In this document: in pieces, positions 137 to 63,055 of the stretch
How positions within the stretch are numbered: the stretch's first letter is position 1
Layout of the letters: every line of letters starts with the position of its first letter
Virus record (IMG/VR): IMGVR_UViG_3300050011_000393
Location: 32,668-96,667 of that record
Origin: a virus
Length of the DNA: 64,000 nucleotides
Reading direction: 5' to 3' (one strand)
Translations under genes and position numbers: made by a program
The notes under the pieces: model-generated
Told to the model about the DNA's origin: nothing
Seen by the model: only the letters and a program-made list of their open reading frames with translations
Databases searched by the model: none

Positions 137-155
137 GACTAAACCATCCATAAGT
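137..155 (+). promoter_or_regulatory. Phage late-promoter-like motif GACT-N8-CATAAGT
   Basis: GACTAAACCATCCATAAGT, intergenic, one of 11 perfect copies. Confidence 0.75.
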
Positions 156-261
156 GTAAAAACAATTTGGGCGAGCGACGGCGCTACAAGGCTCTTCAGA
201 AATTGGGGCCAGTCAAAGAAATACCGTCGCCCTTTTTTCGCATAGGACAGGTGGTGGGGCC

Positions 262-447
262 ATGGGAGCAACACGAAGACTTCTGACGTATAAATGCGAA
301 AAAGGGCACGTAATGCAAAAAACATATCCTCTCGGGGTTCGGTTTGACGACGTAGACGAAACAACTTGTTCGGAGTGCTTGGCTGTGAGCGAAGTTAAAA
401 AAGCCTTCCTGATGTTCGCGGAGGCCGTCTCAGCAGTCCGCAAATAA
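262..447 (+). CDS. small Zn-ribbon protein
   Basis: CxxGH...CxxC pattern. Confidence 0.55.
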   Translation: MGATRRLLTYKCEKGHVMQKTYPLGVRFDDVDETTCSECLAVSEVKKAFLMFAEAVSAVRK

Positions 448-450
448 AAA

Positions 451-750
451 ATGACATCTGACTCACATCGGTACTATTGCCAGAGATGCGACCGTTTCCT
501 CTACGGAGCATTGTTGGCGGACCTTATTTCAGCGGTGAATATCCACGCGAGTTGTTTTCATCCGTCGGATTTTTCGGCCTGGACCGAAAAAGGAATTATC
601 TTGTCCGCTCAATACACTTATTTGGAGGGGGCGGTGCCGCCTTATTTACTATCGCAGGGAATTGTCGCCCCTCCTGCCGTTATCACTCTTCCGGAAATCA
701 CCGAGAACGACAGAAAAATGCTGGCCAAGGGGCATGTGAAATGGGACTAA
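451..750 (+). CDS. hypothetical Zn-finger protein with C-terminal ITENDRKML motif
   Basis: CxxC...HxxxxH; ORF packing. Confidence 0.6.
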   Translation: MTSDSHRYYCQRCDRFLYGALLADLISAVNIHASCFHPSDFSAWTEKGIILSAQYTYLEGAVPPYLLSQGIVAPPAVITLPEITENDRKMLAKGHVKWD

Positions 751-829
751 AACTCTTTTTGGTTTTTGTTTTTGTGTCGCTTCTTGGCGGGCTCTGCGAC
801 CGCTGGTACGCTGTTTGGAGGCATCGCAA

Positions 830-1015
830 ATGACGGCTACCGAAGAAAAACTTCTTGAACTCGGAAATGCCTTGGCGCGCGCAACAGGCCATCATATTGC
901 CCGAGGATGTCCGAAGATTTCTCCTGCGGTTCCGTGTACGTGTGGAGCAGGTCTAGAGCAAGCGAAGGCCCTAGACGCCTGGCAAAGATTTCTTGACCAA
1001 GTAAAGGAGCAGTGA
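830..1015 (+). CDS. hypothetical protein
   Basis: GGAGG RBS, overlaps next ORF. Confidence 0.55.
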   Translation: MTATEEKLLELGNALARATGHHIARGCPKISPAVPCTCGAGLEQAKALDAWQRFLDQVKEQ

Positions 1016-1605: not shown

Positions 1606-1611
1606 CTTCTT

Positions 1612-1649
1612 ACAACTTATTACAGAAACTGACTAATCAAACCATAAGT
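1612..1649 (+). promoter_or_regulatory. Extended late motif ACAACTTATTACAGAAACT-GACT-N8-CATAAGT
   Basis: 23-nt upstream part identical to copy at 63018. Confidence 0.75.
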
Positions 1650-1688
1650 GAAGAGCAATCCAGTTGAGCAATTTCAAAGGCTATTTCA

Positions 1689-1859: not shown

Positions 1860-1860
1860 C

Positions 1861-2388: not shown

Positions 2389-2394
2389 AATCTC

Positions 2395-2429
2395 TTGACA
2401 TTTAGAGAAGTCAATAGTACTTTAGTACT
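2395..2429 (+). promoter_or_regulatory. sigma70 promoter with overlapping GTAC-N4-GTAC operator
   Basis: TTGACA-N17-TACTTT; AGTACTTTAGTACT over the -10. Confidence 0.6.
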
Positions 2430-2446
2430 GCGGAGGGTTTAGGTTC

Positions 2447-3223: not shown

Positions 3224-4104
3224 CGGACCTGGTGATCGGCTTCGCCGCAAATTTCACCTGGAAAGACCTCGAACCCTTCGCTGTTTCTCTTGCCCGATCA
3301 GGGTATACAGGAAAAAAAGTTTTGTTCGCGCAACGGTTGACTCAAGAGGCATGCGACTTTTTGACGTCTTTCGGCTTTGAATTACTTCCTCTTCCCGTGC
3401 TTGAGTACTCCGACCCTGAAATTACGAAGGGCGGGTACTTCGCTTACGTGGCGCGCTTCCTCTTGATTCATCGCTACCTGTACGACAACCCCGATTATAG
3501 ATTTGTGGTGTGCGCCGATACGCGTGACGTCATATTCCAGCACGACCCGATGGCATGGATCGAGAAAAATATCGGCGACAAAGGTATCGTCGCGGCGTCC
3601 GAACATATTTATCACTGGGCCCAAAAAGGAAACACTGACTGGGTCATGAAGAATTTCAAGGAAGTCGACTCTTGGATGATGTCTCAGCCCGTGTATTGTT
3701 CTGGTCTGATCTCGGGGCGCGCAGACTACATCCGAGACTTGGCCATGAGCATTTATTTGATGGGCCGCGCACTAAGCGGAAATACCTGGGGAGCAGACCA
3801 GCCATCATATAACTCAATCATACACCAGAAAGCGTACGCGGACGCAACTCTGGTTCCATCCATGTCCGATGCGTACTGCCTACACTTGGTAGTGGTGGCT
3901 TTTGAAGAATATCGCAAAATGATGACCGATGCTCCCCCTCCAGTTCAGTTTGGGACCTGCTCGTCTGATGGCATCAACCCGCCTAATATGTGGGACTACG
4001 ACCTTCGGGACCTGTCTAATTTCTCGGTCATTCACCAATACGACAGAATGCCGAAGCTGGCCGAACAGATTCGCGCGAAATATAAGATGGGTTCGGAAAA
4101 GTGA
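3220..4104 (+). CDS. glycosyltransferase-like (nucleotide-diphospho-sugar transferase)
   Basis: CADTRDVIFQHDP, CSG...G, ADQ..YN, VIHQYDR motifs. Confidence 0.8.
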   Translation: MTDLVIGFAANFTWKDLEPFAVSLARSGYTGKKVLFAQRLTQEACDFLTSFGFELLPLPVLEYSDPEITKGGYFAYVARFLLIHRYLYDNPDYRFVVCADTRDVIFQHDPMAWIEKNIGDKGIVAASEHIYHWAQKGNTDWVMKNFKEVDSWMMSQPVYCSGLISGRADYIRDLAMSIYLMGRALSGNTWGADQPSYNSIIHQKAYADATLVPSMSDAYCLHLVVVAFEEYRKMMTDAPPPVQFGTCSSDGINPPNMWDYDLRDLSNFSVIHQYDRMPKLAEQIRAKYKMGSEK

Positions 4105-4121
4105 CTTGTTCCTCCATAAGT
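4103..4121 (+). promoter_or_regulatory. late motif GACT-N8-CATAAGT
   Basis: GACTTGTTCCTCCATAAGT overlapping upstream stop codon. Confidence 0.75.
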
Positions 4122-5641: not shown

Positions 5642-5682
5642 ACGCCCTGCTTCGCTAAAAACGGAGCAGGGCGTCTTTATTT
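5642..5682 (+). terminator. probable intrinsic terminator
   Basis: ACGCCCTGCTTCG...CGGAGCAGGGCGT hairpin followed by T-rich tract. Confidence 0.5.
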
Positions 5683-11504: not shown

Positions 11505-11523
11505 GACTTCTTTCCCCATAAGT
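11505..11523 (+). promoter_or_regulatory. late motif GACT-N8-CATAAGT
   Basis: GACTTCTTTCCCCATAAGT. Confidence 0.75.
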
Positions 11524-17051: not shown

Positions 17052-17070
17052 GACTTATTCAACCATAAGT
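17052..17070 (+). promoter_or_regulatory. late motif GACT-N8-CATAAGT
   Basis: GACTTATTCAACCATAAGT. Confidence 0.75.
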
Positions 17071-22594: not shown

Positions 22595-22647
22595 AAGAGT
22601 TTGGCGCTTTAAGACTTTTCATTACATAGTTAGTATAGGAGCGTGAC

Positions 22648-22848: not shown

Positions 22849-23121
22849 GTGACAGATTTCGAGACGCTGGTAATAAAAGAACTTGGCGACATTCGGGCAA
22901 TCGGCACGGCCACCGCGCAAAGAGTCGAGTCACTGGAGAATCGGCTATTCGATGGAAATTCCAGCGTAGTGAGCACTCTGCAGGCCGACATTCAAGAAAT
23001 TAAAGACGACCGCAAGTCCGATGCACGCTGGAGTCGAATACACAACGTGGCACATTACAGCTTGACGCCTATCGTAGTTGCTCTCCACGCCATTGCTCGT
23101 CATTTTGGAATCGAAATTTAA
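22849..23121 (+). CDS. coiled-coil plus C-terminal membrane segment protein (holin/XhlA-like)
   Basis: Coiled coil followed by hydrophobic C-terminus. Confidence 0.45.
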   Translation: MTDFETLVIKELGDIRAIGTATAQRVESLENRLFDGNSSVVSTLQADIQEIKDDRKSDARWSRIHNVAHYSLTPIVVALHAIARHFGIEI

Positions 23122-24479
23122 TTCAAAATTCCCCAGAATTTGCGCTCGGCGGCAGGCGTTTTAGGCAAACGCTTAACGCTGGTTATATCCGCGCGCACCA
23201 AGAAATATCGGCCAGTAGGAAAATTCACCCGGACGATTACGCCTTGTCGATCAATCTTCGTCACTGTGCCACAATATTTCGCCGCGTCTCCCGCTAGGAT
23301 TTCGACAAAATCTCCGCCATGAACCCCCAATAAAGTTGGGGGATTGTGCCCACCCATCATTTGGAGCACGTCTGCATGTGGAACCTCGACGGCATGCATG
23401 AATGTGCCCTCGTCGTCGCAGACTGTAGCCATTTCTGCAATTCCTCGAATCCGAGTCAATTTGCGCGTCAGAGCGGCCGAGGAACTCCGCGCGAAGATAT
23501 ATCCAAATGCCAGTTCGCCATCGGCGTTCAGCGGCGCGAAAATTTGCGCGGGCTTCTTGCCGAAAATGCGTTTTCCTTGTTCGCGGAGCGTCGGCATAAT
23601 TTGCGCCATGCGGTGCTCCGACGAGATCTCCAACATGCACCACGGCGTGTCCTCGAGGCTATCGATGCGGCCGAACGACACGAGCGGAGAAGTCTCCAGC
23701 GGCGGCGCGGCAAAGCGCATAAATTTGACGCGCCGGTTTCGTGCCTGGCACCGTTTGCTGAGTCCTGCGCCAGTCAGAGAAGCCTGGTGAGTCAAACTGC
23801 GGAGATATGCGCCGACGGCAACGGCCTGTACATTCTTGTCCGCAAGAAGTTTCTCGATCACGGGTCGAAAGATTTTACGGACGGCAGGGGTCGGCATAAG
23901 GAAATATCGGGCCACGTCCGAATAGTTCTGGGTCTCGGCATAGGCGACGATCATGTCCGTCAAGGACCCATGTTCCGTGGATTCTACGCCAGCTTTGCGG
24001 AGAATAGGTCGCAGAATCTCCGCATCCGGTTTCACGCCCAACAAGATCAAGGACCCAATGGACTGTTCGATGATGCGCAAATTTTGCCATACCCTTGTTT
24101 GTATAAAGCCGTGAACCTGGCCGATGAAACTCTGCGATTTGCCCAAGAGCCAATATTCGGCGAACAGCTCCTGAAACTCAGGCCGCAGGCGTTCGAGCAA
24201 CGGAATTAATTTGTCAGGATAATCACGCGCGAACGATTTGAAGTCGATGATGCTGCTACTCTCAGGGAGAGTCTCGGCGGACAGCAGAGGATTCTCTTCA
24301 TTGCGATTAAAGGCTTCGTAACTCGCAGCGTCAGAGACGTGGTCCATGTAGGATTGCACGCCCTGGGTACCATCCCCCTTCATGCGCGCTTTGCCGCGTA
24401 ACCACTTGCCGCCCCAAGCGCCGTAACTTCTCCGGCCTAACCCCCGAGGTGCCCGCCACCCGCACGAATATGTCTTCAT
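23118..24479 (-). CDS. tandem sigma70-region-4-like HTH fused to NusG/RfaH-like NGN + KOW domains (transcription regulator)
   Basis: LERLRPEFQELF..YWLLGKSQSFIGQVHG...V; second HTH YAETQNYSDVARYF..PTPAVRK; NGN-like PWCML...FAP...FGYIFAR...LTRIRGI; KOW GDFVEILAGDAAKYCGTVTKID. Confidence 0.75.
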   Translation of the reverse strand: MKTYSCGWRAPRGLGRRSYGAWGGKWLRGKARMKGDGTQGVQSYMDHVSDAASYEAFNRNEENPLLSAETLPESSSIIDFKSFARDYPDKLIPLLERLRPEFQELFAEYWLLGKSQSFIGQVHGFIQTRVWQNLRIIEQSIGSLILLGVKPDAEILRPILRKAGVESTEHGSLTDMIVAYAETQNYSDVARYFLMPTPAVRKIFRPVIEKLLADKNVQAVAVGAYLRSLTHQASLTGAGLSKRCQARNRRVKFMRFAAPPLETSPLVSFGRIDSLEDTPWCMLEISSEHRMAQIMPTLREQGKRIFGKKPAQIFAPLNADGELAFGYIFARSSSAALTRKLTRIRGIAEMATVCDDEGTFMHAVEVPHADVLQMMGGHNPPTLLGVHGGDFVEILAGDAAKYCGTVTKIDRQGVIVRVNFPTGRYFLVRADITSVKRLPKTPAAERKFWGILN

Positions 24480-25408: not shown

Positions 25409-25469
25409 ACAATACGAAATTGTACAAAAACATGCAATAGTACGAAAGTACTAGTTGACAGATGGTACT
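25409..25469. promoter_or_regulatory. divergent promoters with GTAC-N4-GTAC operator
   Basis: minus TTGCAT-N17-TATTGT; AGTACGAAAGTACT at 25439-25452; plus-strand TTGACA follows. Confidence 0.6.
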
Positions 25470-25501: not shown

Positions 25502-25846
25502 ATGCGTCTGTTTTGGATTTTATTGTTGGCTCTTTGTTTGATTGGCTGTGCCCAGTCCAGTCCATCACCGATACCGACTACCCTGACGGTCACCCCGGCT
25601 AGTTTGCCCGTGGCGCGCGCTGGGGAGGTCTATGCCGTGCAATTAACCGCCATAGGGGGTTCCGCACCATATTCTTGGTCCGTCGCCTCTGGCGGGCTCC
25701 CAGTAGGGGTTACGTTAAGTCCTGCAGGGGTCTTGGCAGGGGTTCCCCAGCAGTCAGGCTCGTTCAATTTCGTCATTCAAGTAACAGATTCGGCTACATC
25801 CGTGGCTAAAATTCAAATCAGGGGGAAGAAAGATGCAAATTCGTAG
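25502..25846 (+). CDS. lipoprotein with one putative Ig (He_PIG) domain
   Basis: Lipobox LIGC; GG.APYSWSVASG.LP.GVTL..AG.L.G.P. Confidence 0.8.
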   Translation: MRLFWILLLALCLIGCAQSSPSPIPTTLTVTPASLPVARAGEVYAVQLTAIGGSAPYSWSVASGGLPVGVTLSPAGVLAGVPQQSGSFNFVIQVTDSATSVAKIQIRGKKDANS

Positions 25847-26507
25847 ATGGTTATTCGCGTTTTTTATGCTGGTGTCGTTCGCACTGCCATGGCAGGCGAA
25901 GGCCCAGGACAAAGCAACTAAATCGCTGACGCTGACCGTCAATTCCGGCACAGTGGCAATTTCGACGGCCACGATTCCCGGGGGCATGGTCGGGTTGGCG
26001 TATTCCACAACGATTGCCGCGACTGGTGGCCTTTCGCCATATAATTTCACAGTGACTGCGGGAGCTCTTCCGGCAGGATTGACTCTCGCATCCACCACGG
26101 GAATTTTATCCGGAACGCCGACAACCGCAGGGTCCAGTACATTCACGGTTCAGGTGGTCGACGCCGAAACACCGACCGTCACTGCTACCCAGGCATACAC
26201 TCTCGTCATTGTGCCTACACTCACGATCACGACTTCAACCTTGCCCGCGGCTAACATCGGCGTCAATTACTCGACGACCATCGTGGCCACAGGCGGAGTG
26301 AGTCCGTACACATTCGCAGTCACGACAGGCGCGCTGCCTTCTGGCTTGACACTCTCATCGACGGGTGTAATTTCAGGGACGCCTACTTCTGCGGGATCCT
26401 TCTCGTTTACCATCACGGTCACCGACAGCGGGTCTAACATTGTCCGCTTGGAGATCAAAACAAACATCGAAATCGCGGCGGTCATTACGAAGGGCGACCG
26501 CTCGTGA
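25833..26507 (+). CDS. secreted protein with two putative Ig (He_PIG) domains
   Basis: Signal peptide AKA-QD; two GG.SPY.F..T.GALP.GLTL repeats. Confidence 0.85.
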   Translation: MQIRRWLFAFFMLVSFALPWQAKAQDKATKSLTLTVNSGTVAISTATIPGGMVGLAYSTTIAATGGLSPYNFTVTAGALPAGLTLASTTGILSGTPTTAGSSTFTVQVVDAETPTVTATQAYTLVIVPTLTITTSTLPAANIGVNYSTTIVATGGVSPYTFAVTTGALPSGLTLSSTGVISGTPTSAGSFSFTITVTDSGSNIVRLEIKTNIEIAAVITKGDRS

Positions 26508-26845
26508 AATTGATTCGCACAGGGGTTTTGGCTCTCGCGTTGCTGGCTTCGGCCAGCGGCGCGGGGGCGCAGGACAAAACAACGCACTCGTATGCAGTCA
26601 CTGTCGGGCATGTGGTGACCTTATCCTGGACTGCGTCAACGACCACGGACGTGACCGCCTATAATATTTATGTCAGCGGGACTTCAGGTGGGCCATACAC
26701 TCGTATTGGGACCACGCCATTGCCGCAGTTTATGGATTTAGGTGGAATCGCAGGCACAAAATACTTTTATGTTGTGACGGCGGTTGACGGCAACGGGGAG
26801 AGCGCATTTTCGAGCGAAGTCTCGGTCACACTTCCCACGCCATAA
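26504..26845 (+). CDS. secreted fibronectin type III protein
   Basis: Signal peptide AGA-QD; LSWTAS...YNIY...YFYVVTAVD...ES..S. Confidence 0.85.
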   Translation: MKLIRTGVLALALLASASGAGAQDKTTHSYAVTVGHVVTLSWTASTTTDVTAYNIYVSGTSGGPYTRIGTTPLPQFMDLGGIAGTKYFYVVTAVDGNGESAFSSEVSVTLPTP

Positions 26846-26851: not shown

Positions 26852-26879
26852 TTGACATTGTCCGAGAGTTTGATACCAT
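26852..26879 (+). promoter_or_regulatory. sigma70 promoter of tmRNA gene
   Basis: TTGACA-N16-TACCAT with extended TG. Confidence 0.65.
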
Positions 26880-26885: not shown

Positions 26886-27360
26886 TGCCGTTTAAGCGGC
26901 TGGTGGAAGGAAATGGTTCCACAAAGAGACTCGGATTGATGGGACGGTCCTAAAACCATAGGGACGAACAAAGGGATTGATGGTAGGCATCACTCCTAAA
27001 TCCAACATCACCAGAGTCTCTTTGTGGGGCCGTTTCGCCCCAAAAGTATAATCGTAGAAAGGCTATTGCTTATCATTCGGACGGGGCTTCGATGCCCCCG
27101 GGTCCACCCGAACGCTAGGAAACCGCAAGGAAGGTCGCCGCAGTGCGGTGGACTCTGAGCACCGTGCCTAGCGTTTCGGTGGGCCCGAATCGGTTTCGAC
27201 GGATGCATGAGAGGTAGTGCTTATTCGGTTCGTCACGGACACGACGTTAAACTGTACCAAACAAACAACAGTCAAGCCCACAAAGCTGGCTAAGGTCCTG
27301 ATGTTTGCGCGTCCTGCGGCATTCGTGCCACAGGCACTCGCAGCCTAAAGGGCTGGGCGG
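26886..27360 (+). ncRNA. ssrA: circularly permuted (two-piece) tmRNA
   Basis: T-arm and 3' acceptor strand CGGGTCC-A-CC (27083-27108) precede 5' strand GGGCCCG...TTCGAC (27181); G3:U70 pair; PK1; tag frame 27271-27348 VKPTKLAKVLMFARPAAFVPQALAA*. Ends approximate. Confidence 0.88.
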
Positions 27361-27388
27361 GAGAGCCCGAAAGGTTCTCCCGTTTTTT
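27357..27388 (+). terminator. intrinsic terminator after tmRNA
   Basis: GCGGGAGAGCC-CGAAA-GGTTCTCCCGT followed by T run. Confidence 0.8.
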
Positions 27389-28624: not shown

Positions 28625-29182
28625 CTATGCGAGTACGAGATTGTCCATGGCATCTTGGGCCATAACACCATCATTTTCTTGTAGATAGACGAAAGCCGAA
28701 CTCGGAGACTTGTGTCCCAAGAATTCACTGACCGCGCCGATGCGCTTCGTCACGGCATATACTGCCATGGCGGCACTGTGGCGGAAGACGTGCGAGTGAG
28801 CATAGCTGCTGTGAACGCCAGCAACGGCAAAATACCGAACCAGCGTTTCGTTGTAGTACTGGCGGCTGAGTCCGCCGAAGATCTTGGACAGACCCTTGGT
28901 CGCCGCCAGGGCGATCAGGGGAGTCATGTCGACCGTCGGGTCCTCCGAGATGTGAAGGTTGCGCACGACAACTTTACCGCGCTTGGCTGCGCCGACCCGA
29001 ACGACCCACTTGCCGTCGCGCTGGAAGATATCTTCCCCGCGCAGGTCCAGCATCTGGGAGACGCGCGTGCCAGTGTAGAACATCACCAGCATGGCCATGT
29101 GGTGCAGGTGGCTCTTCTCGGTCTTGGCTTCTTGCGCCGCTCGGAAGACTTTTGCCAGGTCGCTCTCGGGTAAGTAATTCAT
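28625..29182 (-). CDS. short tyrosine recombinase (catalytic domain only, 185 aa)
   Basis: YTGTRVSQ, AKRG, HVFRH, FLGH...Y catalytic residues; AGGAGG RBS. Confidence 0.88.
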   Translation of the reverse strand: MNYLPESDLAKVFRAAQEAKTEKSHLHHMAMLVMFYTGTRVSQMLDLRGEDIFQRDGKWVVRVGAAKRGKVVVRNLHISEDPTVDMTPLIALAATKGLSKIFGGLSRQYYNETLVRYFAVAGVHSSYAHSHVFRHSAAMAVYAVTKRIGAVSEFLGHKSPSSAFVYLQENDGVMAQDAMDNLVLA

Positions 29183-31625: not shown

Positions 31626-31700
31626 TGGTAGTCGGGCGTGGGATTGAACCACGGACCTGGCACTTATAAGGTGCCTGCTCTACCACTGAGCTACCCGACT
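31626..31700 (-). tRNA. tRNA-Ile with UAU anticodon, CCA encoded
   Basis: AGTCGGG/CCCGACT acceptor, GCTC/GAGC D-arm, GGCAC-CTTATAA-GTGCC anticodon arm, GTTCAAT T-loop, ACCA end. Confidence 0.92.
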
Positions 31701-33847: not shown

Positions 33848-33879
33848 GACTATTTGTTCACAGGTAGAGGGTAATCGAC

Positions 33880-35769: not shown

Positions 35770-35982
35770 AAAAGATGAAAAAACGCTTGACAGCGGCATG
35801 CCAAATGCTATAATCGAGGCCATGAAACAGCCTAAAGACTTGATGCGAGGGAGCGCTTGGGACTTCGAAGGGTGCGCCATTGAATTCGGGACAGAACCTG
35901 AGCACTTTTTCAGAACCATATTATATGAGCACCTGCCGCCTGCGAAACAGTGCGGCGCGGCTACATCAAGGGAGAAAAAAGC

Positions 35983-41716: not shown

Positions 41717-43023
41717 TGTATATTTTTCCTGGTCGGATTATCCAACTGGCGCGATGGACTGTAACTCCACACGGGCATTTGCTGCGTGACGGCAAGCCTG
41801 TTGCGGACATCAGGTACAAGGCGGCCAAGGAGCAGATTCAATTCGTGCTGGAGGCCCTGAACGCCGCCGAGGAGAAGCGATGAGCACACAGACATGCACG
41901 GAGCACCCGACAGAGGATTCACTACGTCGCCGCCACGCGCGCTGCATCCGGAGAATCATTCTCAAGCATCTCGGCGGCTTTACTTTCACCGAACCGGACG
42001 GGTTGCCGTTTGATACCGACCACGCCCAGACCAGCACCCGCTCCGAACGTCGCCGGAAGAAACTAGGGCGTGCGTAATGTACGAGCGCATTCTTCTTTCG
42101 GTCGACCTAGTAGGCGCTATTGCTGTGATGGTCGAGGCGGCTTATTACCGTAATCAATTTGTCTCCGGTTGCGGATGCATTTTGGCCTTGACAGCCTTGT
42201 GGTTGTTTAGTAGGATTCTCAAAGATTAAGGAGGCACCATGAGCAAGGAAAGTAATCTCAGCGCATCAGTGGCGGAACTCGAAACGGCGTTCAATCGCAC
42301 TGCCGAAGCGCGCGGCAAACTGCAGATCTCGATTGTCGCGGCCATGGATCAAGCGGCCGTTCTCGACAAGGCCATGGCAGGCTATCGCCGCGCCGTAGAT
42401 ATCCTGACCGCAGAAGTTCACGCGGAGGCCGTATGATCTTAGAGCGCGCGGTCTACCGGGATGAAACCGCACGATGGTACAAGAACGGGGAAGAATTCAA
42501 AACCCCGGGCGTCACCGCCACCAGTTATCCGGAAGCCTTCGAATTGTTGTACGGACATTCCCCCTTCATGCCGCCGTCCGTACGCGCCCCGCACAGAGAT
42601 ACGGTGCTGGCGTGAGCGAGACCTTCTGGACCTTACTGCGCGACCAGGCGCACTGGGAGTTTGAAATTTTTCTGATGCTGCTGTTCGACGGCATCATCGC
42701 GGGAGTGTGCTGGCCTTTTCTTCGCAAGCACTGGGGTCATCATATTGCCCGAGATCACGCCGCCGCCGCGGTGTATGATTGGTCGATGTCTCCTGCAGCC
42801 ATAGCGGCAAGTCATTTGAAGAATCCTCCCGACCCATGCTTTAGTTGCGCTGGTTCGACCGTGCTGCTAGACAATTCGGTAGTAATCTGCAAGGAGTGTG
42901 GGCACGTTACAGTGCCGTCGAAATAGACTTTCAGTAAATGGCGTGTTTTCAACATTTGTTGAAATAGGGTGAAAACCCGCAAAAAACATGTGACAACCCC
43001 AGAGACTTTGAACTGACATCTCA

Positions 43024-43053
43024 TTACAGAAACTGACTTATCAAATCATAAGT
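43024..43053 (+). promoter_or_regulatory. extended late motif TTACAGAAACT-GACT-N8-CATAAGT
   Basis: GACTTATCAAATCATAAGT. Confidence 0.75.
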
Positions 43054-45922: not shown

Positions 45923-45959
45923 AATTAGCATTTTATGTTTATGGGTGATATAATTTCTT

Positions 45960-46535
45960 ATGCGTTTTTACTCTTATTTGTGGCTTCGAGAAGACGGGTC
46001 CCCATACTATGCGGGAAAAGGCTCAGGTAATAGGGCGTACAAAAGTCATAGACATCGCGGGCTTTGTCCACCAAAAAATCGAGATTTGATTCTTGTGTTT
46101 TTTCATGAATCGGAAGATGAGGCTTTTGGCTCTGAGAGAGCGTTCATTCGCTGGTTCGGCCGCAAAGACTTGGGTATGGGGTGTCTTATAAATCACACGG
46201 ACGGCGGAGATCAACCGCCGAGCGCGAAAGGCCGAAAACGGTCTGCAGCGTTTATTCAAAAAATGAGAGATCGAACTCCAACCATCCCCACGCCCGCAAG
46301 TAGAGAGAAGAATCGGATTGCGCATTTAGGACGAAAGCACACCCAAGAATCAAAAAAGAAACAGTCAGAGAAAATGATGGGGCGGTTGAAATCGGAGGAG
46401 ACCAAAGCAAAAATGTCTTTGGCCCAGATAGGAAATTCTAAATTTAAGGGGCGACATCATACCGCCGAGACCAAGGCTAAAATGTCAGCCATTCGATTTG
46501 AGCGTTACGGAAAAGGAGCGATATGTCGAAATTAG
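45960..46535 (+). CDS. GIY-YIG-like homing endonuclease with NUMOD3 repeats
   Basis: FYSYLWLREDGSPYYAGKG..R, E..FI..FGRKD, N.TDGG, HTAETKAKMS. Confidence 0.88.
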   Translation: MRFYSYLWLREDGSPYYAGKGSGNRAYKSHRHRGLCPPKNRDLILVFFHESEDEAFGSERAFIRWFGRKDLGMGCLINHTDGGDQPPSAKGRKRSAAFIQKMRDRTPTIPTPASREKNRIAHLGRKHTQESKKKQSEKMMGRLKSEETKAKMSLAQIGNSKFKGRHHTAETKAKMSAIRFERYGKGAICRN

Positions 46536-48130
46536 TAAAACATGGAGCAGAGGCCCGCGAGGCTATTTTAAAGGGGGTCGATTTTATAGCCGACGTAGTT
46601 GCTCTGACTGAAGGACCTCGCGGAAGAAATATTATTATGGGACAACGCGCTTTAGGCCAATCACCTCGCATAACTAAAGATGGAGTAAGCGTTGCGAATT
46701 ATGTTGACCCCTCAGATTCCACGGAGCAGATGGGCGCGGATTTAATTCGAGAAGCGTGTCAGAAAACGGATAACTCTGTTGGGGATGGGACTACCTGCAC
46801 CGCCGTTCTTGCTCGCGCTATGGTACACGCAGGGTTTGATCTGATTGATAAGGGCGCTAACCCTATGGCGATAGAGCGCGGGATTCATAAGGCGACCGAT
46901 GTCGTCATTTCTCGTATTCAAAAAATGGCTGTTGAAATCACACCAGAGAAAGTTTTTCATGTCGCAACAGTCTCGGCTCATGGCGACACCGAAATTGGTC
47001 GCTTAGTCGCAGACGCAGTTCAGAAGGCAGGGAAAGACGGAGTAGTGACGGCGGAACCCTCCTCAACCTCCGCAACTTATGTGGAGACCGTTGCAGGACT
47101 GGAGCTCGAAAAATCTAATTTGGTCTCCCCCGCCTTTATCACACACCCTGAAACTATGTCTGCGGAGCTTTCGAATTGCCATATTCTTCTCTGGGAAGGC
47201 GTGATTGCCACTGCGAAGTCCGTCGTGCCGATATTGAAACAACTCAAGGATTTGCAAGACTCTGGCGCTGGCGGCGCGCTGCTAATTATTGCGGGCGGGT
47301 ATGAGGCCGAAGCCTTGTCTTGTATCATCAACAACAAGATCAGCCTCAAGCTGCCTTTGATAGCGGTCAGGATGGAAGCCTACGGAGACCGCCGCAAGGA
47401 GGTCATGCGGGACATCGCGGCATTGACTGGCGGCAAGGCGTTTACAGAAGACCTAGGGCTGAAAATCGATAACGTGAAGTTCGCGGAACTCGGCCAGGCG
47501 CGCAAGGTCGTCACCACCATGGCGAAGACCCAGATCCTCGGCGGCAAGGGCAAGCAGGATGAGGTTGCGGGGCGCGTGGCGCACATTCAAACCCTGATTG
47601 AGTCTGTCTCACCAGCCGAACGCAGTCCGTTGCGTCAGAGGCTCGCTGCGCTGCTGGGTGGCATCACTGTGATCAAGGTCGGGGGCGTAACCGTCACCGA
47701 AATGGAAGAGAAGAAAGACCGCGTCGTGGACGCGCTCTCGGCCGCCAAGGCTGCAGTGGAGTCTGGCATCGTTCCTGGCGGCGGCACTGCGCTCCTGCAT
47801 GCAGCGAAAGTTCTTGATGAGCTGGCGGTTCCTGAAGCCGAAGTTGCGGGTGTGCAGGTAGTGCATACCGCGTGCCATGCAGTTACCAAACAAATTGCAG
47901 CCAATGCAGGTCTCGACGGCGAACTGATTATTGCTCAATTATTTTTATCGCCCGGGGAGCAAGGCTATAACGCCTTCACGGACAAGTTTGAAGACCTCGT
48001 CGAGTCAGGCATCATCGACCCCCTGAAGGTCGTGGTCGAGTCCTTGAAAAACGCTTCGGCGGTCTCATGCTCGATTCTTACCATGGGTGCGACGATCAGC
48101 GAAATCAGACAGGAGAAATCGAATGGCTAA
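46523..48130 (+). CDS. groEL: chaperonin GroEL
   Basis: GPRGRN, ITKDGVSVA, GDGTT, IKVGG.T..EM.EKKDR, GIVPGGG, GIIDP. Confidence 0.97.
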   Translation: MSKLVKHGAEAREAILKGVDFIADVVALTEGPRGRNIIMGQRALGQSPRITKDGVSVANYVDPSDSTEQMGADLIREACQKTDNSVGDGTTCTAVLARAMVHAGFDLIDKGANPMAIERGIHKATDVVISRIQKMAVEITPEKVFHVATVSAHGDTEIGRLVADAVQKAGKDGVVTAEPSSTSATYVETVAGLELEKSNLVSPAFITHPETMSAELSNCHILLWEGVIATAKSVVPILKQLKDLQDSGAGGALLIIAGGYEAEALSCIINNKISLKLPLIAVRMEAYGDRRKEVMRDIAALTGGKAFTEDLGLKIDNVKFAELGQARKVVTTMAKTQILGGKGKQDEVAGRVAHIQTLIESVSPAERSPLRQRLAALLGGITVIKVGGVTVTEMEEKKDRVVDALSAAKAAVESGIVPGGGTALLHAAKVLDELAVPEAEVAGVQVVHTACHAVTKQIAANAGLDGELIIAQLFLSPGEQGYNAFTDKFEDLVESGIIDPLKVVVESLKNASAVSCSILTMGATISEIRQEKSNG

Positions 48131-49492: not shown

Positions 49493-49511
49493 GACTAACG
49501 CTTTCATAAGT
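49493..49511 (+). promoter_or_regulatory. late motif GACT-N8-CATAAGT
   Basis: GACTAACGCTTTCATAAGT. Confidence 0.75.
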
Positions 49512-52613: not shown

Positions 52614-52632
52614 GACTTCTTAAACCATAAGT
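52614..52632 (+). promoter_or_regulatory. late motif GACT-N8-CATAAGT
   Basis: GACTTCTTAAACCATAAGT, ATG only 2 nt downstream. Confidence 0.75.
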
Positions 52633-52634
52633 GT

Positions 52635-52943
52635 ATGGACCCATCTTTCCTTCTCGGCATTGCATCGCTCGGGCAACCGCGCCCAGGCTCCGTGTATGAG
52701 GAGTCAGGCACGGCTGATTCTGGCTACGAGGAAAAAGGGCCGTACCATTGTGAGGACTGTATTCACAAGACCGCACAGGACGAGCCATTCTGCGTTCATC
52801 CTGCAGTACTCGCAGATCCTGAGCTGCAAAGTCGAGTCGTACTGCTGGATAATCGCCCTGTGTCCAAAATCAATTTGAAGCATGGCTGCTGCAAATTTGT
52901 AAAACAAATGCAGGTTCCTAAAGAGGAGTCCGACCATGAGTGA
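52635..52943 (+). CDS. Cys-rich protein with HiPIP-like cysteine spacing
   Basis: Y....CEDC..C...I...GCC.F. Confidence 0.5.
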   Translation: MDPSFLLGIASLGQPRPGSVYEESGTADSGYEEKGPYHCEDCIHKTAQDEPFCVHPAVLADPELQSRVVLLDNRPVSKINLKHGCCKFVKQMQVPKEESDHE

Positions 52944-53888: not shown

Positions 53889-53907
53889 GACTTTCTTCTC
53901 CATGAGT
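53889..53907 (+). promoter_or_regulatory. late motif, one mismatch (GACT-N8-CATGAGT)
   Basis: GACTTTCTTCTCCATGAGT. Confidence 0.65.
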
Positions 53908-56314: not shown

Positions 56315-56333
56315 GACTATTCTTGCCATAAGT
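56315..56333 (+). promoter_or_regulatory. late motif GACT-N8-CATAAGT
   Basis: GACTATTCTTGCCATAAGT. Confidence 0.75.
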
Positions 56334-57874: not shown

Positions 57875-59782
57875 ATGTCTGAACAATTTCCAGTCGACGA
57901 AATTTTATTGGCAAACTATCGCAAGTCGGTGGACCTGACAAACTTCCCCCGTGGATTTTTGAAATGGTTCGAAGGCGCAACTGCGAATGAACGTACTGAC
58001 TGGTTCAAGGGCCGTTTTCGTTGCCTGAAATACCACCTCTATCTCAGCGGATTCGCTGAAGCTACGAAGCCCGGTGATCCTGACCTGCCCAAAGAATATG
58101 TTCCGATCCTCGGAATGGATTTCCAGCCTGACCCGCACTCCAGACTATTTTCTTGTTTCTTGCAGAAGAAGCCAGGCGAGAATCTTGTTCTGACCGACCT
58201 CGACACCCAGACGAAGAAACGCATGATTCTTTGGCCTCGAGGGCTTTTCAAAACCTCTGCGGTCAGGGTTGATATCGTTCAGCTCATTCTGAACTATCCC
58301 GACGTCCGTATATGCTTTTTGACTGGTTCGGATAAACTCGCGAAGAAACAACTGGGAGCGATCAAACGGTTTTTTGAGAGCCCGACGAAATTGTTTAAAT
58401 GGCTCTTCCCTGAATTTTGTACGCGCAGTGTGCGGAATAAAAAAGTCAAAGACGAGACCGCGCCAGGTGCATGGACGGACGAGATATGCAAGTTGGGCAA
58501 CGCATACCAGTTCACTGTTCCGTGTCGTACAACAGAAATTTTCGCCGAACCCACCTTCGTTATTTCGACTGCACGATCAGTCAAGGCTGGGTCCCACTTC
58601 GATGTCATCTACATTGACGACCTCGTGAACGAAACGAACTACCGCAAGGCAGAAGCCCTAGAAAAATGTTACGACGACTATATCGATATCTGCCCGATTC
58701 TTGAGCCGTTTGGATTCATCGTCGTGACCGGGACGCGGTACTCTTTCGGCGATACTTACGAGCGCATTCAAGACGACGCCAAAAAAGAAATGAAGGAAAT
58801 GGGCAGATCGATCTGGAAGTTTTTCATTCGAGATTGCTGGAGTCATGGGTGCCAGAACTGCGCGCACACGAATGTCTACCACGACTTTGATGTGAATATC
58901 CTCCAACCTCCATGTATTGAGCCCGGGTGTAAATGCATAGGTTACCAGGATCGCGGAAACAAGGACGTACTGTTCCCTGAGACGCGCACGCACTCGGGCC
59001 GCCAGATTGGCCATACCCTGGCTTTGTTGAACCAGAAACTGATTGAGTCCAGTCCTGAGTTTTTTGCCAACCAATACGAGAACAAGCCTATCGCCACGGG
59101 CACGCAAACTTTCGACGACGTGTTGATCGGACGACAGACTCTCCATAGCCTTTCGCTGATTCCTGCTGAGGGCTCGGGAACCACATTTGTTGTGGGAGAC
59201 CTAGCATATGTCGGTCAACCAGGCAGAGACTATTCTGTGATTTTTGTGTGCAGGGTATTTCGCGGGCAGATTTTTATTATTGACTGCCGATTCGGTAACT
59301 GGGACTCAGCTCAAATTGCGGAGCAGACCGTCAAGGTGCTTCTCGACCATCGGCCCAACATAATTTATTATGAAAAATTTAATGGTTGGGAGGCGTATAA
59401 CAACGTCATCGCCGCCCTTGCTGCTGCTCGCGGCCTTTTGAAGGTCCCGATTCAATGGGAGAAGGGGTCTCAGGCGAACAACGCGAAACTGACTCGCATC
59501 GGGTCTGTTAAAGGGCCCCTCTCCGCACGCCGTTTATGGATTTATGGAGGCATTCCGGGGTATGACATTCTCGTTCAACAGTTGGTCAAGTGGCCGAAGC
59601 TGGGCCGCCACGACGATTTTGCTGATTGCGCGGGCATGGTTGTCTCCGTGCCGTCGGGATACCAGTTAGAAAACCCACCTGCGCCGCCTTCGGTGACCAG
59701 TTGGTTGCAGAAATTGCACCAAACGACCCCTACCGAGGACCAGTATTACGATACGGGCTGCGGAACGGGCTTTTGTGGTTGA
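57875..59782 (+). CDS. terL: terminase large subunit
   Basis: PRGLFKTS Walker A variant, G.HFDVIYIDDLV Walker B, GTRY, F..QY.N.P, GDLAY..DYS, HDD..D. Confidence 0.92.
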   Translation: MSEQFPVDEILLANYRKSVDLTNFPRGFLKWFEGATANERTDWFKGRFRCLKYHLYLSGFAEATKPGDPDLPKEYVPILGMDFQPDPHSRLFSCFLQKKPGENLVLTDLDTQTKKRMILWPRGLFKTSAVRVDIVQLILNYPDVRICFLTGSDKLAKKQLGAIKRFFESPTKLFKWLFPEFCTRSVRNKKVKDETAPGAWTDEICKLGNAYQFTVPCRTTEIFAEPTFVISTARSVKAGSHFDVIYIDDLVNETNYRKAEALEKCYDDYIDICPILEPFGFIVVTGTRYSFGDTYERIQDDAKKEMKEMGRSIWKFFIRDCWSHGCQNCAHTNVYHDFDVNILQPPCIEPGCKCIGYQDRGNKDVLFPETRTHSGRQIGHTLALLNQKLIESSPEFFANQYENKPIATGTQTFDDVLIGRQTLHSLSLIPAEGSGTTFVVGDLAYVGQPGRDYSVIFVCRVFRGQIFIIDCRFGNWDSAQIAEQTVKVLLDHRPNIIYYEKFNGWEAYNNVIAALAAARGLLKVPIQWEKGSQANNAKLTRIGSVKGPLSARRLWIYGGIPGYDILVQQLVKWPKLGRHDDFADCAGMVVSVPSGYQLENPPAPPSVTSWLQKLHQTTPTEDQYYDTGCGTGFCG

Positions 59783-59787: not shown

Positions 59788-59806
59788 GACTTCTCTTTTC
59801 ATAAGT
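59788..59806 (+). promoter_or_regulatory. late motif GACT-N8-CATAAGT
   Basis: GACTTCTCTTTTCATAAGT. Confidence 0.75.
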
Positions 59807-59816
59807 AGAGACCATT

Positions 59817-62042
59817 ATGGCTGATGAGCAAACAAAAGGTATTACTGCGACTAGTCATTTCGAGGATTTAGGGCAGATTCGCGTCCTCGACTTGCCTGGA
59901 GCCGTGCCTTACGGCGAACTCGCGCTTCCAATAGGCCCGACCGAAGTCGCTTTTGACGATCAACTGCGCTCTGATTTATCGATGATGAAGGAGGCTAACC
60001 TCAACAGGGAAGAATCCGAAACATTTATCGCGACCCGGGGGTTAATCGGCCGATGGAATGTCGCAGAATTGATGCTGCGTGCTTGGGTTGAGCCCGTCAA
60101 GTGGAAGGGTAGTGATCAATTTCGCTCCCACCTCGGCGTGCCGCTCGTCGCGGAGCAATTTTACAGCATTCACAGCGTCGTGAACCAGACACTCTTCGGC
60201 GGATACCGGGTTTTTAAAATCGATCCCACATCCGGCACAGAATTGAACTGCGCACTGGCTCAAGAATCGATTCTGACCGCGCAATTAAAGACCTGCGGCT
60301 ACAAAGGCGTCTCGGCCAAGACTGAGATGCGGGAAATTACCTACGACGGACTCTTTTATGGGTTCGGTGTGGCGCATTATGGATGGGAAACCAAGAAAGA
60401 AAACATTCTTAAGAAGGTTCAGAAGTCCCATCCGACAACAACTGTGGTCAACGGCCTGACTGTCACGATTCCTGTCGAAGACGAAGACAATATCGAGGAA
60501 AAAGTCATCGGAGTTCGTGAAGTCAACATGCCAAAGCTGGAGCATGTTCCAATTCGTCGGTTCCGATACGCCCCTGACCTCCGCCGCGGCGATCCGCGTG
60601 TCGCTGAATGGTGCGGTCGCATTATTTATTTGACAGGCTATCAAATCGACTCCATGCGGAACACCGCAGGATGGAATATTCCAACTCGCGCGCAGATTGT
60701 CGCGCTCACGACCCCGCAAATGCAGACGAATGCGGCGACGAATCCCCTAGAGACTCTAGGATCGAATACTGGCAATCCTATTTTCCAGCAAACGACCACG
60801 CCGCAGAAGGCATATCCTGAAAATTACACTGAGCGCACCGCGCATGACCCCTTGATGCGCAAATTTGAATGTTTCGATTACTGGACCGGGTCACGCCATG
60901 CAATTATTCTGGGCAAAGAGTACTGCTTGCTGAACGAACCGCATAATTTCAAGCGGCCTCCGTTCCTAGGCTTCTGTTTCCGCAATGCACCTGACTCAGC
61001 GCATGGATATGGCATCGCGTATTGGTTGACGGACTTCCAACGCGTCTGCCAAGGCGTAATTAACGCATTTTTGGATGACATGAACTTGAATTTGATGGGG
61101 ACGTACACTTCGCCCGCAGGCACAAATAATTCCGCGCAGGCTCAGTGGATTTTTCCTGGGAAAGTCTTCAAATCCGACGCGCAGGGAAAAATCGAGCCTC
61201 TGACGCGCAATGCAGTCAACGCGCAAGAGCCATTGGCCGTCATTCAGCAAATGAAAGCATGGGCTTCCTCGATTTCAGGCGCGGGCATGAGTACTTTGGG
61301 CGGTAACCCGGGCGCAGCAGGGGATGTGCGCACGCCGGGCGGGGTTGCAGCGGCCACAGGCGGGGAATCTGTCAAGCTGCAGGACCTCGTCGACGTAATT
61401 TCCGAGCAGGTGTTCGTTCCCTTCTTGGAATTCTGCATCGAGCAAAATCAGAAGCTCAAGCCGTCGCAATTGCGCATGCTTCTGTCCGACACTCTCGGCA
61501 CCGCATTCGAAGCTACGCCTTTGAACGTCTTGAACGGAACCTACAAGGTTGATATCTCGGCCGGAACAAAACTCGCGGCGCGCGAAGCCTTGAATAAATA
61601 CATGAGCGTCATCGAGACCTTCCTGCAATCGCCAGGCACCGTGGAGATGCTCGCGCAACAAGCTATGAAGGTCGACTTCAATGCGATGTTTACGGCAATG
61701 TTTGATACCTACGGTGTACCGTTCAAGGAGAACGTGATCGTTGATCAGACTGATGAAGATAAGGCCCGCGTGGCCGCAAATACGCAGGCCGCCGCCGCGC
61801 AGGGCAAACTCGGCATCGTCAAGGCGCAAGGGGAGGTGAAGAAAGATGTAGATAATAACGCCGCAGAAAACAGGATGCTCGTGGAAACGGGAAAACATAC
61901 TCTTCGGCAACAAGGAGAGGCGGCAGGACACCAAAATGACCTAGAACTACAGCAAAAACAATTTGCTCAGACCCCCCAAGCACAGGGGTTAGACCGCGCG
62001 GCTAAGGGCGCGTTTGCCGCAGCGGATAAAAATAATTTTTAG
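59817..62042 (+). CDS. portal protein (P22/podovirus-like)
   Basis: Follows TerL; DGL.YG.GV...GW, P...HG.GI...L.D.Q...N..LD, PGKV motifs. Confidence 0.85.
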   Translation: MADEQTKGITATSHFEDLGQIRVLDLPGAVPYGELALPIGPTEVAFDDQLRSDLSMMKEANLNREESETFIATRGLIGRWNVAELMLRAWVEPVKWKGSDQFRSHLGVPLVAEQFYSIHSVVNQTLFGGYRVFKIDPTSGTELNCALAQESILTAQLKTCGYKGVSAKTEMREITYDGLFYGFGVAHYGWETKKENILKKVQKSHPTTTVVNGLTVTIPVEDEDNIEEKVIGVREVNMPKLEHVPIRRFRYAPDLRRGDPRVAEWCGRIIYLTGYQIDSMRNTAGWNIPTRAQIVALTTPQMQTNAATNPLETLGSNTGNPIFQQTTTPQKAYPENYTERTAHDPLMRKFECFDYWTGSRHAIILGKEYCLLNEPHNFKRPPFLGFCFRNAPDSAHGYGIAYWLTDFQRVCQGVINAFLDDMNLNLMGTYTSPAGTNNSAQAQWIFPGKVFKSDAQGKIEPLTRNAVNAQEPLAVIQQMKAWASSISGAGMSTLGGNPGAAGDVRTPGGVAAATGGESVKLQDLVDVISEQVFVPFLEFCIEQNQKLKPSQLRMLLSDTLGTAFEATPLNVLNGTYKVDISAGTKLAAREALNKYMSVIETFLQSPGTVEMLAQQAMKVDFNAMFTAMFDTYGVPFKENVIVDQTDEDKARVAANTQAAAAQGKLGIVKAQGEVKKDVDNNAAENRMLVETGKHTLRQQGEAAGHQNDLELQQKQFAQTPQAQGLDRAAKGAFAAADKNNF

Positions 62043-62080
62043 TTATTGACCTAAACACTTTGTTCTGGTATAGTTAAAGC

Positions 62081-62620
62081 ATGAAATTTTACTCTTATTT
62101 ATGGTTGAGAGATGATGGGTCCCCGTACTACGCCGGGAAAGGTTCGGGCAGGCGAGCGTTTCAAAGTCAAGGTCATTTAACTAAACGCCCAAAAAAGATA
62201 TCGAATATTTTAATATTTTATCATGTGACTGAAGTCGAATCATTTGCTTCAGAGGTAGCCTTTATTAAATGGTTTGGTCGCAAAGACCTAGGCACGGGGA
62301 TTCTGCGAAATTTTACCGATGGTGGAAATGATGGATATCATCGAGGGCCTTGGTCTGCAACACGAAAAGACGCCCAAGCGTCCCGCATCAAAAAGCAAGG
62401 GCTTGGTGGATGGAATAAAGGCATGCGGATGCCGACGACAGCCGAAAAAATGAAAGGGAACACGCATACTAAAGGAAAGCACACTCATTCCGCCGAAGGA
62501 AATCTTCGCATAAGCGAAGCCAAGAAAAATATCCCTTTATCCGCCGCACACAAAAAGGCATTGAAATTATCACATCGAACTTGTTCATGTCCACATCATG
62601 TTGCCGCAAGGAGCAAGTAA
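62081..62620 (+). CDS. GIY-YIG-like homing endonuclease
   Basis: Paralog of 45960..46535 (FYSYLWLR.DGSPYYAGKGSG.RA); own TTGACC..TATAGT promoter. Confidence 0.88.
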   Translation: MKFYSYLWLRDDGSPYYAGKGSGRRAFQSQGHLTKRPKKISNILIFYHVTEVESFASEVAFIKWFGRKDLGTGILRNFTDGGNDGYHRGPWSATRKDAQASRIKKQGLGGWNKGMRMPTTAEKMKGNTHTKGKHTHSAEGNLRISEAKKNIPLSAAHKKALKLSHRTCSCPHHVAARSK

Positions 62621-63015
62621 TGAGCGAACCAAACGTACTACCTTCTTCGGCGGTCATCGACCGAGCAAATCGTCTTATGGGCCTACGGGCCAATCCGGGC
62701 TTTCCTGACGCGTGGCAGATTTCAAAAGCCCTCGCAGACGAAGCAGGACACATCTCCATCACATATCCCGGTTGGGACCCCCAACAAATTATGGTGTTAA
62801 AGGCGCGCGCCCAGGCTGCGCTCGAGCATCATGAATTATTCTTCGCTAAAATCCAAGAAGTGATTCGCGCAGGTATCCAAGAACAAGCGGCCAGTCCTAC
62901 TCTGTCCGACAAAACTCCCGCCGAAGTGTTGGAGACTGGAGACTATGTCCGCCAAGAAGTTTTGGCTCATTTTGCCGAGATGGATAGCGAAGGTCGACTT
63001 CCTGGCACGTACTGA
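62620..63015 (+). CDS. small post-portal head assembly protein
   Basis: L...PG. helical pattern; position between portal and scaffold. Confidence 0.55.
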   Translation: MSEPNVLPSSAVIDRANRLMGLRANPGFPDAWQISKALADEAGHISITYPGWDPQQIMVLKARAQAALEHHELFFAKIQEVIRAGIQEQAASPTLSDKTPAEVLETGDYVRQEVLAHFAEMDSEGRLPGTY

Positions 63016-63017
63016 TG

Positions 63018-63055
63018 ACAACTTATTACAGAAACTGACTTACCATTCCATAAGT
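63018..63055 (+). promoter_or_regulatory. extended late motif
   Basis: ACAACTTATTACAGAAACTGACTTACCATTCCATAAGT. Confidence 0.75.

Follow-up and report, generated by a model that had tools for sequence, protein, structure and literature searches.

A rigidly spaced two-box element as a probable phage-specific promoter in uncultured phages with ~97-kb genomes, and a helix-turn-helix/NusG fusion as its candidate reader

Introduction

Phage T4 redirects the host RNA polymerase to its late promoters (TATAAATA) by means of gp55, gp33 and the sliding clamp, and these promoters have no -35 element. We describe here an element that is similar in lacking a -35 element and in that, as we propose, a phage redirects host polymerase to it: the bipartite motif GACT-N8-CATAAGT, recurring within a 64,000 nt stretch (the window) that comprises bases 32668-96667 of the 96,667-bp IMG/VR virus record IMGVR_UViG_3300050011_000393. 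Coordinates are those of the window unless preceded by "genome", which refers to the whole record. The first-pass annotation of this DNA had suggested a phage-specific late promoter, read by the protein encoded at 23118-24479, which has two helix-turn-helix (HTH) domains and a NusG-like part. Our comparison of the genome with its relatives indicates that the motif is probably a promoter, and it appears reasonably likely that it is a phage-specific one used by a phage-directed host polymerase; the 23118-24479 protein may be its reader, an assignment that we make tentatively, from co-occurrence in one clade, the absence of other candidates and a plausible geometry.

Within the T4 late complex, gp55 is bound to the beta-prime clamp helices and gp33 to the beta flap (PMC7892883). 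These are the sites that would be expected for the NGN domain and the sigma-region-4 domain of the candidate protein, and its putative box, YATARKTR among relatives, shares the conserved A2, T3, A4 and T7 of TATAAATA. Unlike T4 late promoters, which have no upstream element, the motif has an invariant GACT exactly 8 nt upstream of the box and an A/T-rich (W) tract ahead of GACT; its start may lie nearer to the box; and no gp55 or gp33 homologue was detected in Pfam/PHROGs scans of ~115 proteins (among the 25/34 PHROG families listed), a search which distant homologues may escape. Sigma appropriation by T4 MotA/AsiA likewise uses a bipartite phage promoter, where a phage DNA-binding protein reads an upstream box and replaces the -35 contact (PMC6755090). 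The present element resembles these middle promoters in being bipartite with an upstream box, its reader being a candidate; whereas the MotA box is centred at -30 and joined to a normal sigma70 -10, the boxes here are 8 nt apart and the downstream box lacks the A-to-T spacing of sigma70.

RfaH with its ops site, and the NusG paralogues LoaP, UpxY, TaA and ActX, share with the present system an NGN-KOW fold, a one-strand site and long operons. The ops element is 12 nt long (GGCGGTAGnnTG) and occurs once per operon leader. To our knowledge, the known specialised NusG paralogues have no domains that bind double-stranded DNA and act on elongating polymerase. Here, in contrast, there are two HTH domains and a 31-nt site in ~14 copies that resemble start points; nor do the copies hold the ops-type position in a transcribed leader downstream of a promoter, as most directly follow coding sequence and three head isolated units without a sigma70-like promoter. 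The lambda Q, 21 Q and AlpA proteins dock at a DNA element next to a -10-like sequence and travel with the polymerase (PMC9371919, PMC9388147). A specific element beside a -10-like sequence, and a docking protein that would then travel with polymerase, are also features of our proposal; the Q and AlpA systems, however, have one sigma70 promoter per late operon, most copies here have none, and the protein folds are unrelated. T7-group promoters are similar in their long contiguous box, AT-rich sequence just before the presumed start (as placed below), purine-rich start and many one-strand copies, and the T7 promoter consensus contains GACT, as the motif does; but no such polymerase gene was found in this genome, and GACT and the presumed start are separated by 8 nt more than in T7. 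Our search of the literature, confined to one library of papers, found neither a sigma4-NusG fusion nor promoters of this kind described.

Results

Motif copies in the genome

All 11 exact copies listed in the first-pass annotation were recovered in the window, each on the plus strand, and none was found on the minus strand; shuffled sequences give 0.02 expected copies. Extending the scan to the full genome gave 13 exact copies, again all on the plus strand, the two outside the window being at genome 938 (68 nt ahead of the major head protein gene) and genome 23316 (ahead of a primase-helicase cluster). The window copies and their variants are:

137..155, plus strand: exact copy, starting 3 nt past the upstream stop codon
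1631..1649, plus strand: exact copy, of the subclass with an upstream CTTATTACAG element
4103..4121, plus strand: exact copy heading a two-gene unit (323 and 116 amino acids), with a strong terminator at the unit end
11505..11523, plus strand: exact copy ahead of a GIY-YIG homing endonuclease and a 1454-amino-acid gene; stem-loop from motif position 21
17052..17070, plus strand: exact copy immediately past a stop codon, next start codon 12 nt on
22613..22631, plus strand: variant copy CATAGTT, with a GTAC-N4-GTAC palindrome before and a small zinc-ribbon open reading frame (ORF) after; orthologous copies in relatives
43035..43053, plus strand: exact copy, the first after the motif-free early region, of the upstream-element subclass; heads a chaperonin-containing cluster
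49493..49511, plus strand: exact copy
52614..52632, plus strand: exact copy abutting a start codon that has no Shine-Dalgarno (SD) site
53889..53907, plus strand: single-mismatch copy CATGAGT ahead of an endonuclease VII/HNH-like gene
56315..56333, plus strand: exact copy heading the large-terminase cluster
59788..59806, plus strand: exact copy, 10 nt ahead of the portal gene
63037..63055, plus strand: exact copy, of the upstream-element subclass

The single-mismatch copy at 53889 is as it was annotated. Two degenerate copies had also been listed: that at 22613 is retained, since its two mismatches fit the wider consensus and it has an orthologous place in relatives, whereas that at 33848 is not supported, as it lacks the invariant A14-T15 (numbering below) and falls under the position weight matrix threshold. 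As a class, matches with two mismatches are at chance level in the window. Another match, at 40897 (CACAAGT), has a single mismatch, which falls on an invariant position; it is apparently a chance occurrence.

The genome is estimated to be 97% complete (52% G+C), with ~83 kb coded co-directionally on the plus strand and a block of mostly minus-strand genes at 22.4-35.7 kb of the window. By new gene calls, 14/15 GACT-N8-YATA sites are intergenic; 7/13 exact copies begin at most 5 nt from the upstream stop codon, the next start codon is 9-122 nt downstream in most cases, and nearly all copies are co-oriented with the genes that follow, in agreement with the placement first reported. The motif marks ~14 gene-cluster starts in the genome. 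These include the head protein, portal and terminase cluster, as had been claimed for virion and packaging genes, but also homing endonucleases (11505, 53889), the chaperonin cluster (43035), the primase-helicase cluster (genome 23316) and small ORFs of no known function. A promoter is the reading best supported by the positional, comparative and translation-signal evidence; since the motif is also found at the head of replication, chaperonin and homing-endonuclease genes, the word "late" does not cover all of its uses, and middle/late would be the better description.

Conservation in relatives and consensus

Seven relatives were found in IMG/VR. The exact motif has 6, 7, 2, 0 and 0 copies in five of them, each time on one strand. 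The counts of GACT-N8-YATA on the coding/other strand are 15/1, 15/0, 9/1, 10/0 and 11/0 in the five complete genomes, where GACT and YATA at any other spacing of 4-13 nt are seen only 0-4 times, and 15/2 and 11/0 in two further, partial relatives; 56/60 sites in the complete genomes are intergenic. Strict 8-nt spacing and confinement to one strand thus hold across all seven relatives examined. The downstream box drifts with distance (CATAAGT, CATAGAT, CATAGGT, TATAGGT, TATAATT), GACT and the spacing being fixed, and syntenic copies are found ahead of the major head protein gene, ahead of the gene following the portal gene, and elsewhere. In phages Tunturi_3 and Tunturi_5, outside the clade, the pattern is at chance level only.

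The consensus was drawn from 63 intergenic sites of the genome and four complete relatives, with G of GACT as position 1. Information content spans positions -6 to +25, from 6 nt ahead of GACT through 6 nt past the box T, giving an element of ~31 nt, RRWWtaA-GACT-TwyCnTTC-YATARKT-RkRRgg: a W-rich tract, the invariant GACT, a semi-conserved T/C-rich 8-nt spacer, the YATARKT box, and the purine-rich RkRRgg. Because the spacer has conserved bases, "N8" is not free sequence. No site departs from A14 and T15, few depart from A16 and T19, and C hardly occurs at positions 16-23.

A subclass of 2-3 sites per genome, in syntenic places, has a second element (TGcTGAAAwCTTrTTACAg) 6-7 nt upstream of GACT, seen at window 1616-1630, 43020-43034 and 63022-63036 and in relatives; it may be a site for another regulator or mark a separate temporal class. 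A hairpin between the spacer and the downstream purines appeared plausible by eye, but its duplex energies equalled those of re-paired controls (p = 0.50). A partial dyad, ACTT...AAGT, is perfect in only 3/13 copies and lost in relatives, and the strict strand bias argues against a symmetric dimer site. Rfam gave no known RNA family at the motif sites.

Evidence for promoter function

Isolated plus-strand units inside minus-strand blocks are headed by the motif in relatives G003 (65063), G004 (62463 and 66242) and G005 (28768), and in the window at 22613; no sigma70-like promoter was found in 3/5 of the gaps ahead of these units. The ATG which had been seen 2 nt past the 52614 copy does begin a protein, and in two relatives (G003, G004) conservation of that protein reaches up to its first residues:

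52635..52943, plus strand: ORF with ATG at motif position 22 and no SD site; N-terminus conserved in G003 and G004

The SD-less conserved ATG of this family is at motif position 22 here, 22 in G004 and 19 in G003, and a GIY-YIG endonuclease family has an SD-less ATG at motif position 25 in G002 and G004. As these ATGs abut the box, an RNA 5' end would be needed nearby. A strong stem-loop with its first paired base at position 20-23 is found at 12/63 sites, vs. 6% of shuffles. Two motif-headed units stop after two genes at strong terminator-like hairpins, one at genome 3118-3145, following the head protein gene and its neighbour, and the other within the window:

5642..5674, plus strand: hairpin like an intrinsic terminator (13-bp stem and T run), closing the unit begun at 4103

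This arrangement of motif, two genes and terminator matches that of a strong late promoter followed by an attenuating terminator.

Ordinary sigma70 promoters are present elsewhere in the phage, and the motif would therefore be a separate promoter class. The best of them is:

35787..35814, plus strand: perfect sigma70 consensus promoter TTGACA-16-TATAAT with TG (12/12 match), in the divergent early region

Further intergenic sigma70 candidates are at 45925, 62046, genome 407 and genome 18901; overall, sigma70-like matches in motif-bearing regions are at chance level. The motif itself fits neither sigma70 nor sigma54, as the first-pass annotation had held. The best -35 at spacing 16-19 matches at most 3/6 bases at most of 54 sites, only the ATTACA subclass reaching 4/6, and the -10 spacing is off since 5 positions, in place of 4, separate A14 from T19; of the 63 sites, 36/16/11 have G/T/A at position 18, and two sites carry TATAAT or TATAAG. 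For sigma54 (TGGCAC-N5-TTGC), the consensus has no GG or GC pair at the required spacing. GACT as part of a TTGACT -35 with a -10 downstream was seen once (genome 23316), and positions 22-27 are generally not -10-like.

Two clues bear on the start site. The ATGs at 19-22 and the stem-loops point to about position 20, directly past the box, which would be unlike sigma70 promoters and would resemble those of single-subunit polymerases. The two GIY-YIG cases read TATAAT or TATAAG, 6 nt, ATG, and fit a sigma70-like or T4-late-like start at position 25, or else a 5-nt leader from position 20. We place the RNA start, from these sequence features, at 0-6 nt past T19.

An endonuclease VII/HNH-like ORF at genome 529-900, which the gene caller had not picked up, is equipped with a near-consensus sigma70 promoter of its own (TTGACT-16-TATAAT, genome 407-434). 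The ORF is flanked by the preceding gene (genome 43-399) and by the motif copy that belongs to the head protein gene. There are also six GTAC-N4-GTAC palindromes (0.21 expected), at window 2417, 22582, 25440, 29240, 32922 and 35739, all in regulatory gaps, which include those beside the consensus early promoter, ahead of the operon that encodes the candidate reader, and ~10 nt ahead of the 22613 variant; GGTAC-N4-GTAC accompanies the orthologous copies of the motif in relatives as well. The set looks like repressor operators.

The candidate specificity factor

23118..24479, minus strand: candidate specificity factor of 421-453 amino acids, with sigma-region-4 HTH, second HTH, NGN and KOW domains
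25409..25451, minus strand: sigma70-like promoter TTGCAT-17-TATTGT (read by eye) and GTAC-N4-GTAC palindrome ahead of the factor operon

The protein was modelled with 30 homologues (mean pLDDT 79; residue numbers are those of the 421-amino-acid form, which begins with M33 of the 453-amino-acid ORF), and the predicted fold bears out the HTH-HTH-NusG architecture first proposed for it. Residues 53-116 superpose on region 4 of SigB, SigL, SigW, SigH, sigma32 and sigmaE (Z 5.2-6.2, root-mean-square deviation 1.0-2.7 A); the second HTH, at residues 130-186, is of LuxR/DesR type (Z 5.7); residues 244-350 are an NGN domain (Z 7.5-8.6 to NusG, RfaH and Spt5) and residues 353-410 a KOW-type barrel, the NGN-KOW part giving Z 7.7 to RfaH in the ops-paused complex. 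The Foldseek probability is 1.0 to NusG, RfaH and Spt5; at the sequence level the NusG/Spt5 signal is weak, and Pfam Sigma70_r4_2 does not detect the region-4 fold. The model contains no sigma region 2, and PF04542 has no match in six frames. The gene is the last of a four-gene minus-strand operon, and the sigma70-like promoter ahead of this operon fits a cascade from host-type promoters to factor to motif.

Metagenomic contigs 93-107 kb long carry more than 150 close homologues. When 1.8 billion representative proteins were searched with a profile, about ten fused clusters emerged, along with many standalone proteins of ~250 amino acids that match only the twin-HTH half, and many others that match only the NGN-KOW half. 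Fusion of the halves in one protein suggests that they work together. Factor and motif co-occur in 7/7 clade members.

The gene context of the split forms was examined in Tunturi_5, a cultivable Tunturiibacter jumbo phage in which both halves are separate genes; it is of no help in assigning the factor, as it also has a normal sigma70-family gene and its own two-box promoter. In Tunturi_5 (PP885688) the sigma70-family gene is at ~152.0-152.5 kb, the twin-sigma4 half is a standalone protein encoded at 301753-302484, and the standalone NGN-KOW protein is gp25. Its rigid two-box promoter (aaAGTCATCTTTGG-N12-TTGTAGGTTGA) has ~30 copies, in 11 of which an ATG is exactly 7 nt past GTAGGT, implying leaderless mRNAs. 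GGTATTA is also present, in 55 copies with the consensus tGGGTATTAgc; 43 of these precede genes, and several form the loops of hairpins that resemble terminators. Transcription is not mentioned in the Tunturi phage paper.

Other transcription machinery

Neither a phage RNA polymerase nor a sigma factor was detectable. Six-frame searches of the genome gave no match to Sigma70_r2, Sigma70_r4_2 or Pfam NusG, and none to PF00940 (T7-type polymerase), though the controls for the latter also gave no signal. The A/B/C motif set of T7-type enzymes was found only in the DNA polymerase, the DxDGD-type two-barrel motif in no called protein, and no other transcription factor family in scans of the ~115 proteins. 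Five large late-region proteins (432-1454 amino acids) have no assignable family, and PDB sequence searches with them gave no match; they lie in the tail/structural region, and one with a Tunturi_3 homologue matches the "head decoration protein" of that phage. An ESM Atlas look-up of a 1917-amino-acid protein returned only DUF7178.

Discussion

We propose that the early genes, including the factor operon, use ordinary sigma70-type promoters, and that the factor would then redirect host RNA polymerase to the motif, driving the middle and late genes. Its two HTH domains would recognise double-stranded DNA at GACT and near where the YATA box begins; the centres of these two sites are separated by roughly one helical turn, the distance that a pair of neighbouring HTH domains should span. 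The NGN domain would rest on the beta-prime clamp helices, the site of sigma region 2 and of T4 gp55, beside the melted YATARKT strand; in this position, as established for NusG and RfaH, an NGN domain sits at the upstream edge of the bubble. RNA would start 0-6 nt past the box, and the NGN-KOW part may stay on the polymerase as an antiterminator. The fullest form of this idea would make the factor a sigma-like initiation factor, its NusG-fold domain taking the place of sigma region 2 and reading the melted YATARKT strand while the HTHs read the GACT duplex, and serving afterwards as a built-in antiterminator; we hold this to be somewhat unlikely.

Several observations weigh against our proposal. 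Factor and motif co-occur within a single clade only, which gives no phylogenetically independent instance of the association. As far as we know, every NusG paralogue characterised acts in elongation and none in promoter recognition. The two start-site clues are ~5 nt apart (position 20 vs. 25), and in co-directional arrays the start codons beside the motif could be served by read-through transcripts. The five large proteins without a family also count here, and on their account an unrecognised polymerase keeps a small probability.

The main alternative is a loading site of ops or Q-binding element (QBE) type, where the NusG-like protein would board polymerases begun upstream and resist termination and Rho across the 83-kb array. 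Factors of the RfaH/ops type are loaded at sites that work on one strand of transcribed DNA. The motif is strand-specific and lies between genes, an NGN-KOW module such as that of RfaH, LoaP and NusG is present in the one transcription protein that could be recognised, and strong terminators (window 5642, genome 3118) lie inside motif-headed arrays, where motif-less downstream genes need read-through. A processive factor, however, would not need ~14 reloading sites; most copies are directly preceded by coding sequence, not by a promoter, and the isolated plus-strand units in minus-strand blocks lack a sigma70-like promoter (3 gaps); SD-less start codons and stem-loops right past the box imply an RNA 5' end there; and the sequence is unlike the ops consensus (GGCGGTAGnnTG). 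On these points we regard a loading site as unlikely. Less likely again, to the point of being a slight chance, is the promoter of a phage-encoded RNA polymerase that escaped recognition. The design is like that of single-subunit polymerase promoters, with a long contiguous box ending at the start and then purine: ~25 nt are conserved up to the presumed start at position 20, purine-rich transcribed sequence follows, and the five unassigned late-region proteins could be candidates. Against it are the lack of a PF00940 six-frame match, the T7-type motif set being present only in the DNA polymerase, the lack of a DxDGD-type motif in the called proteins, and the position of the unassigned proteins among tail and structural genes, with the match of one to a Tunturi_3 "head decoration protein".

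RNase III sites between T7 genes, and RegB sites in T4, are parallels for a motif that acts in RNA, as a cleavage or binding site that makes mature mRNA 5' ends from long transcripts. Its intergenic, strand-specific placement and the apparent RNA 5' ends right past the box would agree with this, but there is no conserved secondary structure across the motif (spacer pairing equals the re-paired controls, p = 0.50) nor an Rfam match, a W-tract with rigidly spaced boxes is typical of protein-DNA recognition, and the candidate partner has HTH domains of the type that binds double-stranded DNA; we give this account a slimmer chance than the hidden polymerase. The slimmest goes to a promoter for a host alternative sigma factor, acting without a phage specificity factor. 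No phage sigma factor was found in the genome, and the YATARKT box is AT-rich like a -10 element; yet the 8-nt box spacing fits no two-element promoter of the sigma70 family (16-18 nt), the sequence does not fit sigma54, and within the clade the box drifts (CATAAGT, CATAGAT, TATAGGT, TATAATT) faster than a host-imposed signal should. The motif may also be a non-transcriptional DNA signal, e.g., strand-specific nick sites, which would leave its consistent placement just ahead of ribosome-binding sites unexplained.

Phage-specific promoter classes are already known, and what is unusual about a phage-specific promoter of the present kind is its geometry, with a rigid 8 nt between the two boxes, a missing -35 element and a start that is probably at the box edge, in a clade without a detectable sigma factor or polymerase of its own. 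Were the factor shown to act as the proposed initiation factor, promoter specificity would for the first time be traced to a member of the NusG family. If the fusion reads the motif, initiation factors and NusG, the universally conserved elongation factor, would be less sharply separated, and an undescribed but widespread phage module (twin-sigma4 and NusG paralogue, fused or split) would gain a function. In practical terms, the motif can serve to map operons and as a source of orthogonal promoter parts in phages of a soil phylum that has received little study.

Gene content and probable host

Family assignments place the following genes:

window 57875-59782: large terminase
window 59817-62042: SU10-type portal
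genome 1025-2020: major head protein
window 46523-48130: GroEL

The phage also encodes Cpn10 (GroES), RecA, SSB, ERF, MazG and endolysin families, a DNA polymerase, an intein-containing UvrD-type helicase, a primase-helicase and several homing endonucleases. Among named phages the closest is Tunturi_3, a Tunturiibacter podovirus, with a terminase amino acid identity of only ~25%; from this the host is probably an acidobacterium, and the clade is most likely one of uncultured Acidobacteriota phages with ~97-kb genomes.

The UvrD-type helicase (genome 21023-23293) is split by a Hint/intein-like segment at residues ~129-392. A short Phage_integrase-family protein of 185 amino acids (window 28625-29182, minus strand) is encoded in a genome that is otherwise lytic-looking. 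A tRNA-Ile with anticodon TAT is at window 31626-31700 (minus strand; ARAGORN and Rfam). Within the mostly minus-strand block there are two Ig-like/FN3 domain proteins (He_PIG, fn3; window 25833-26845, plus strand), and a permuted transfer-messenger RNA (Rfam RF04321, 70.3 bits) at window 27050-27348 (plus strand), flanked by a sigma70-like promoter ahead (26852-26879) and a terminator with a 13-bp stem behind (27355-27385).

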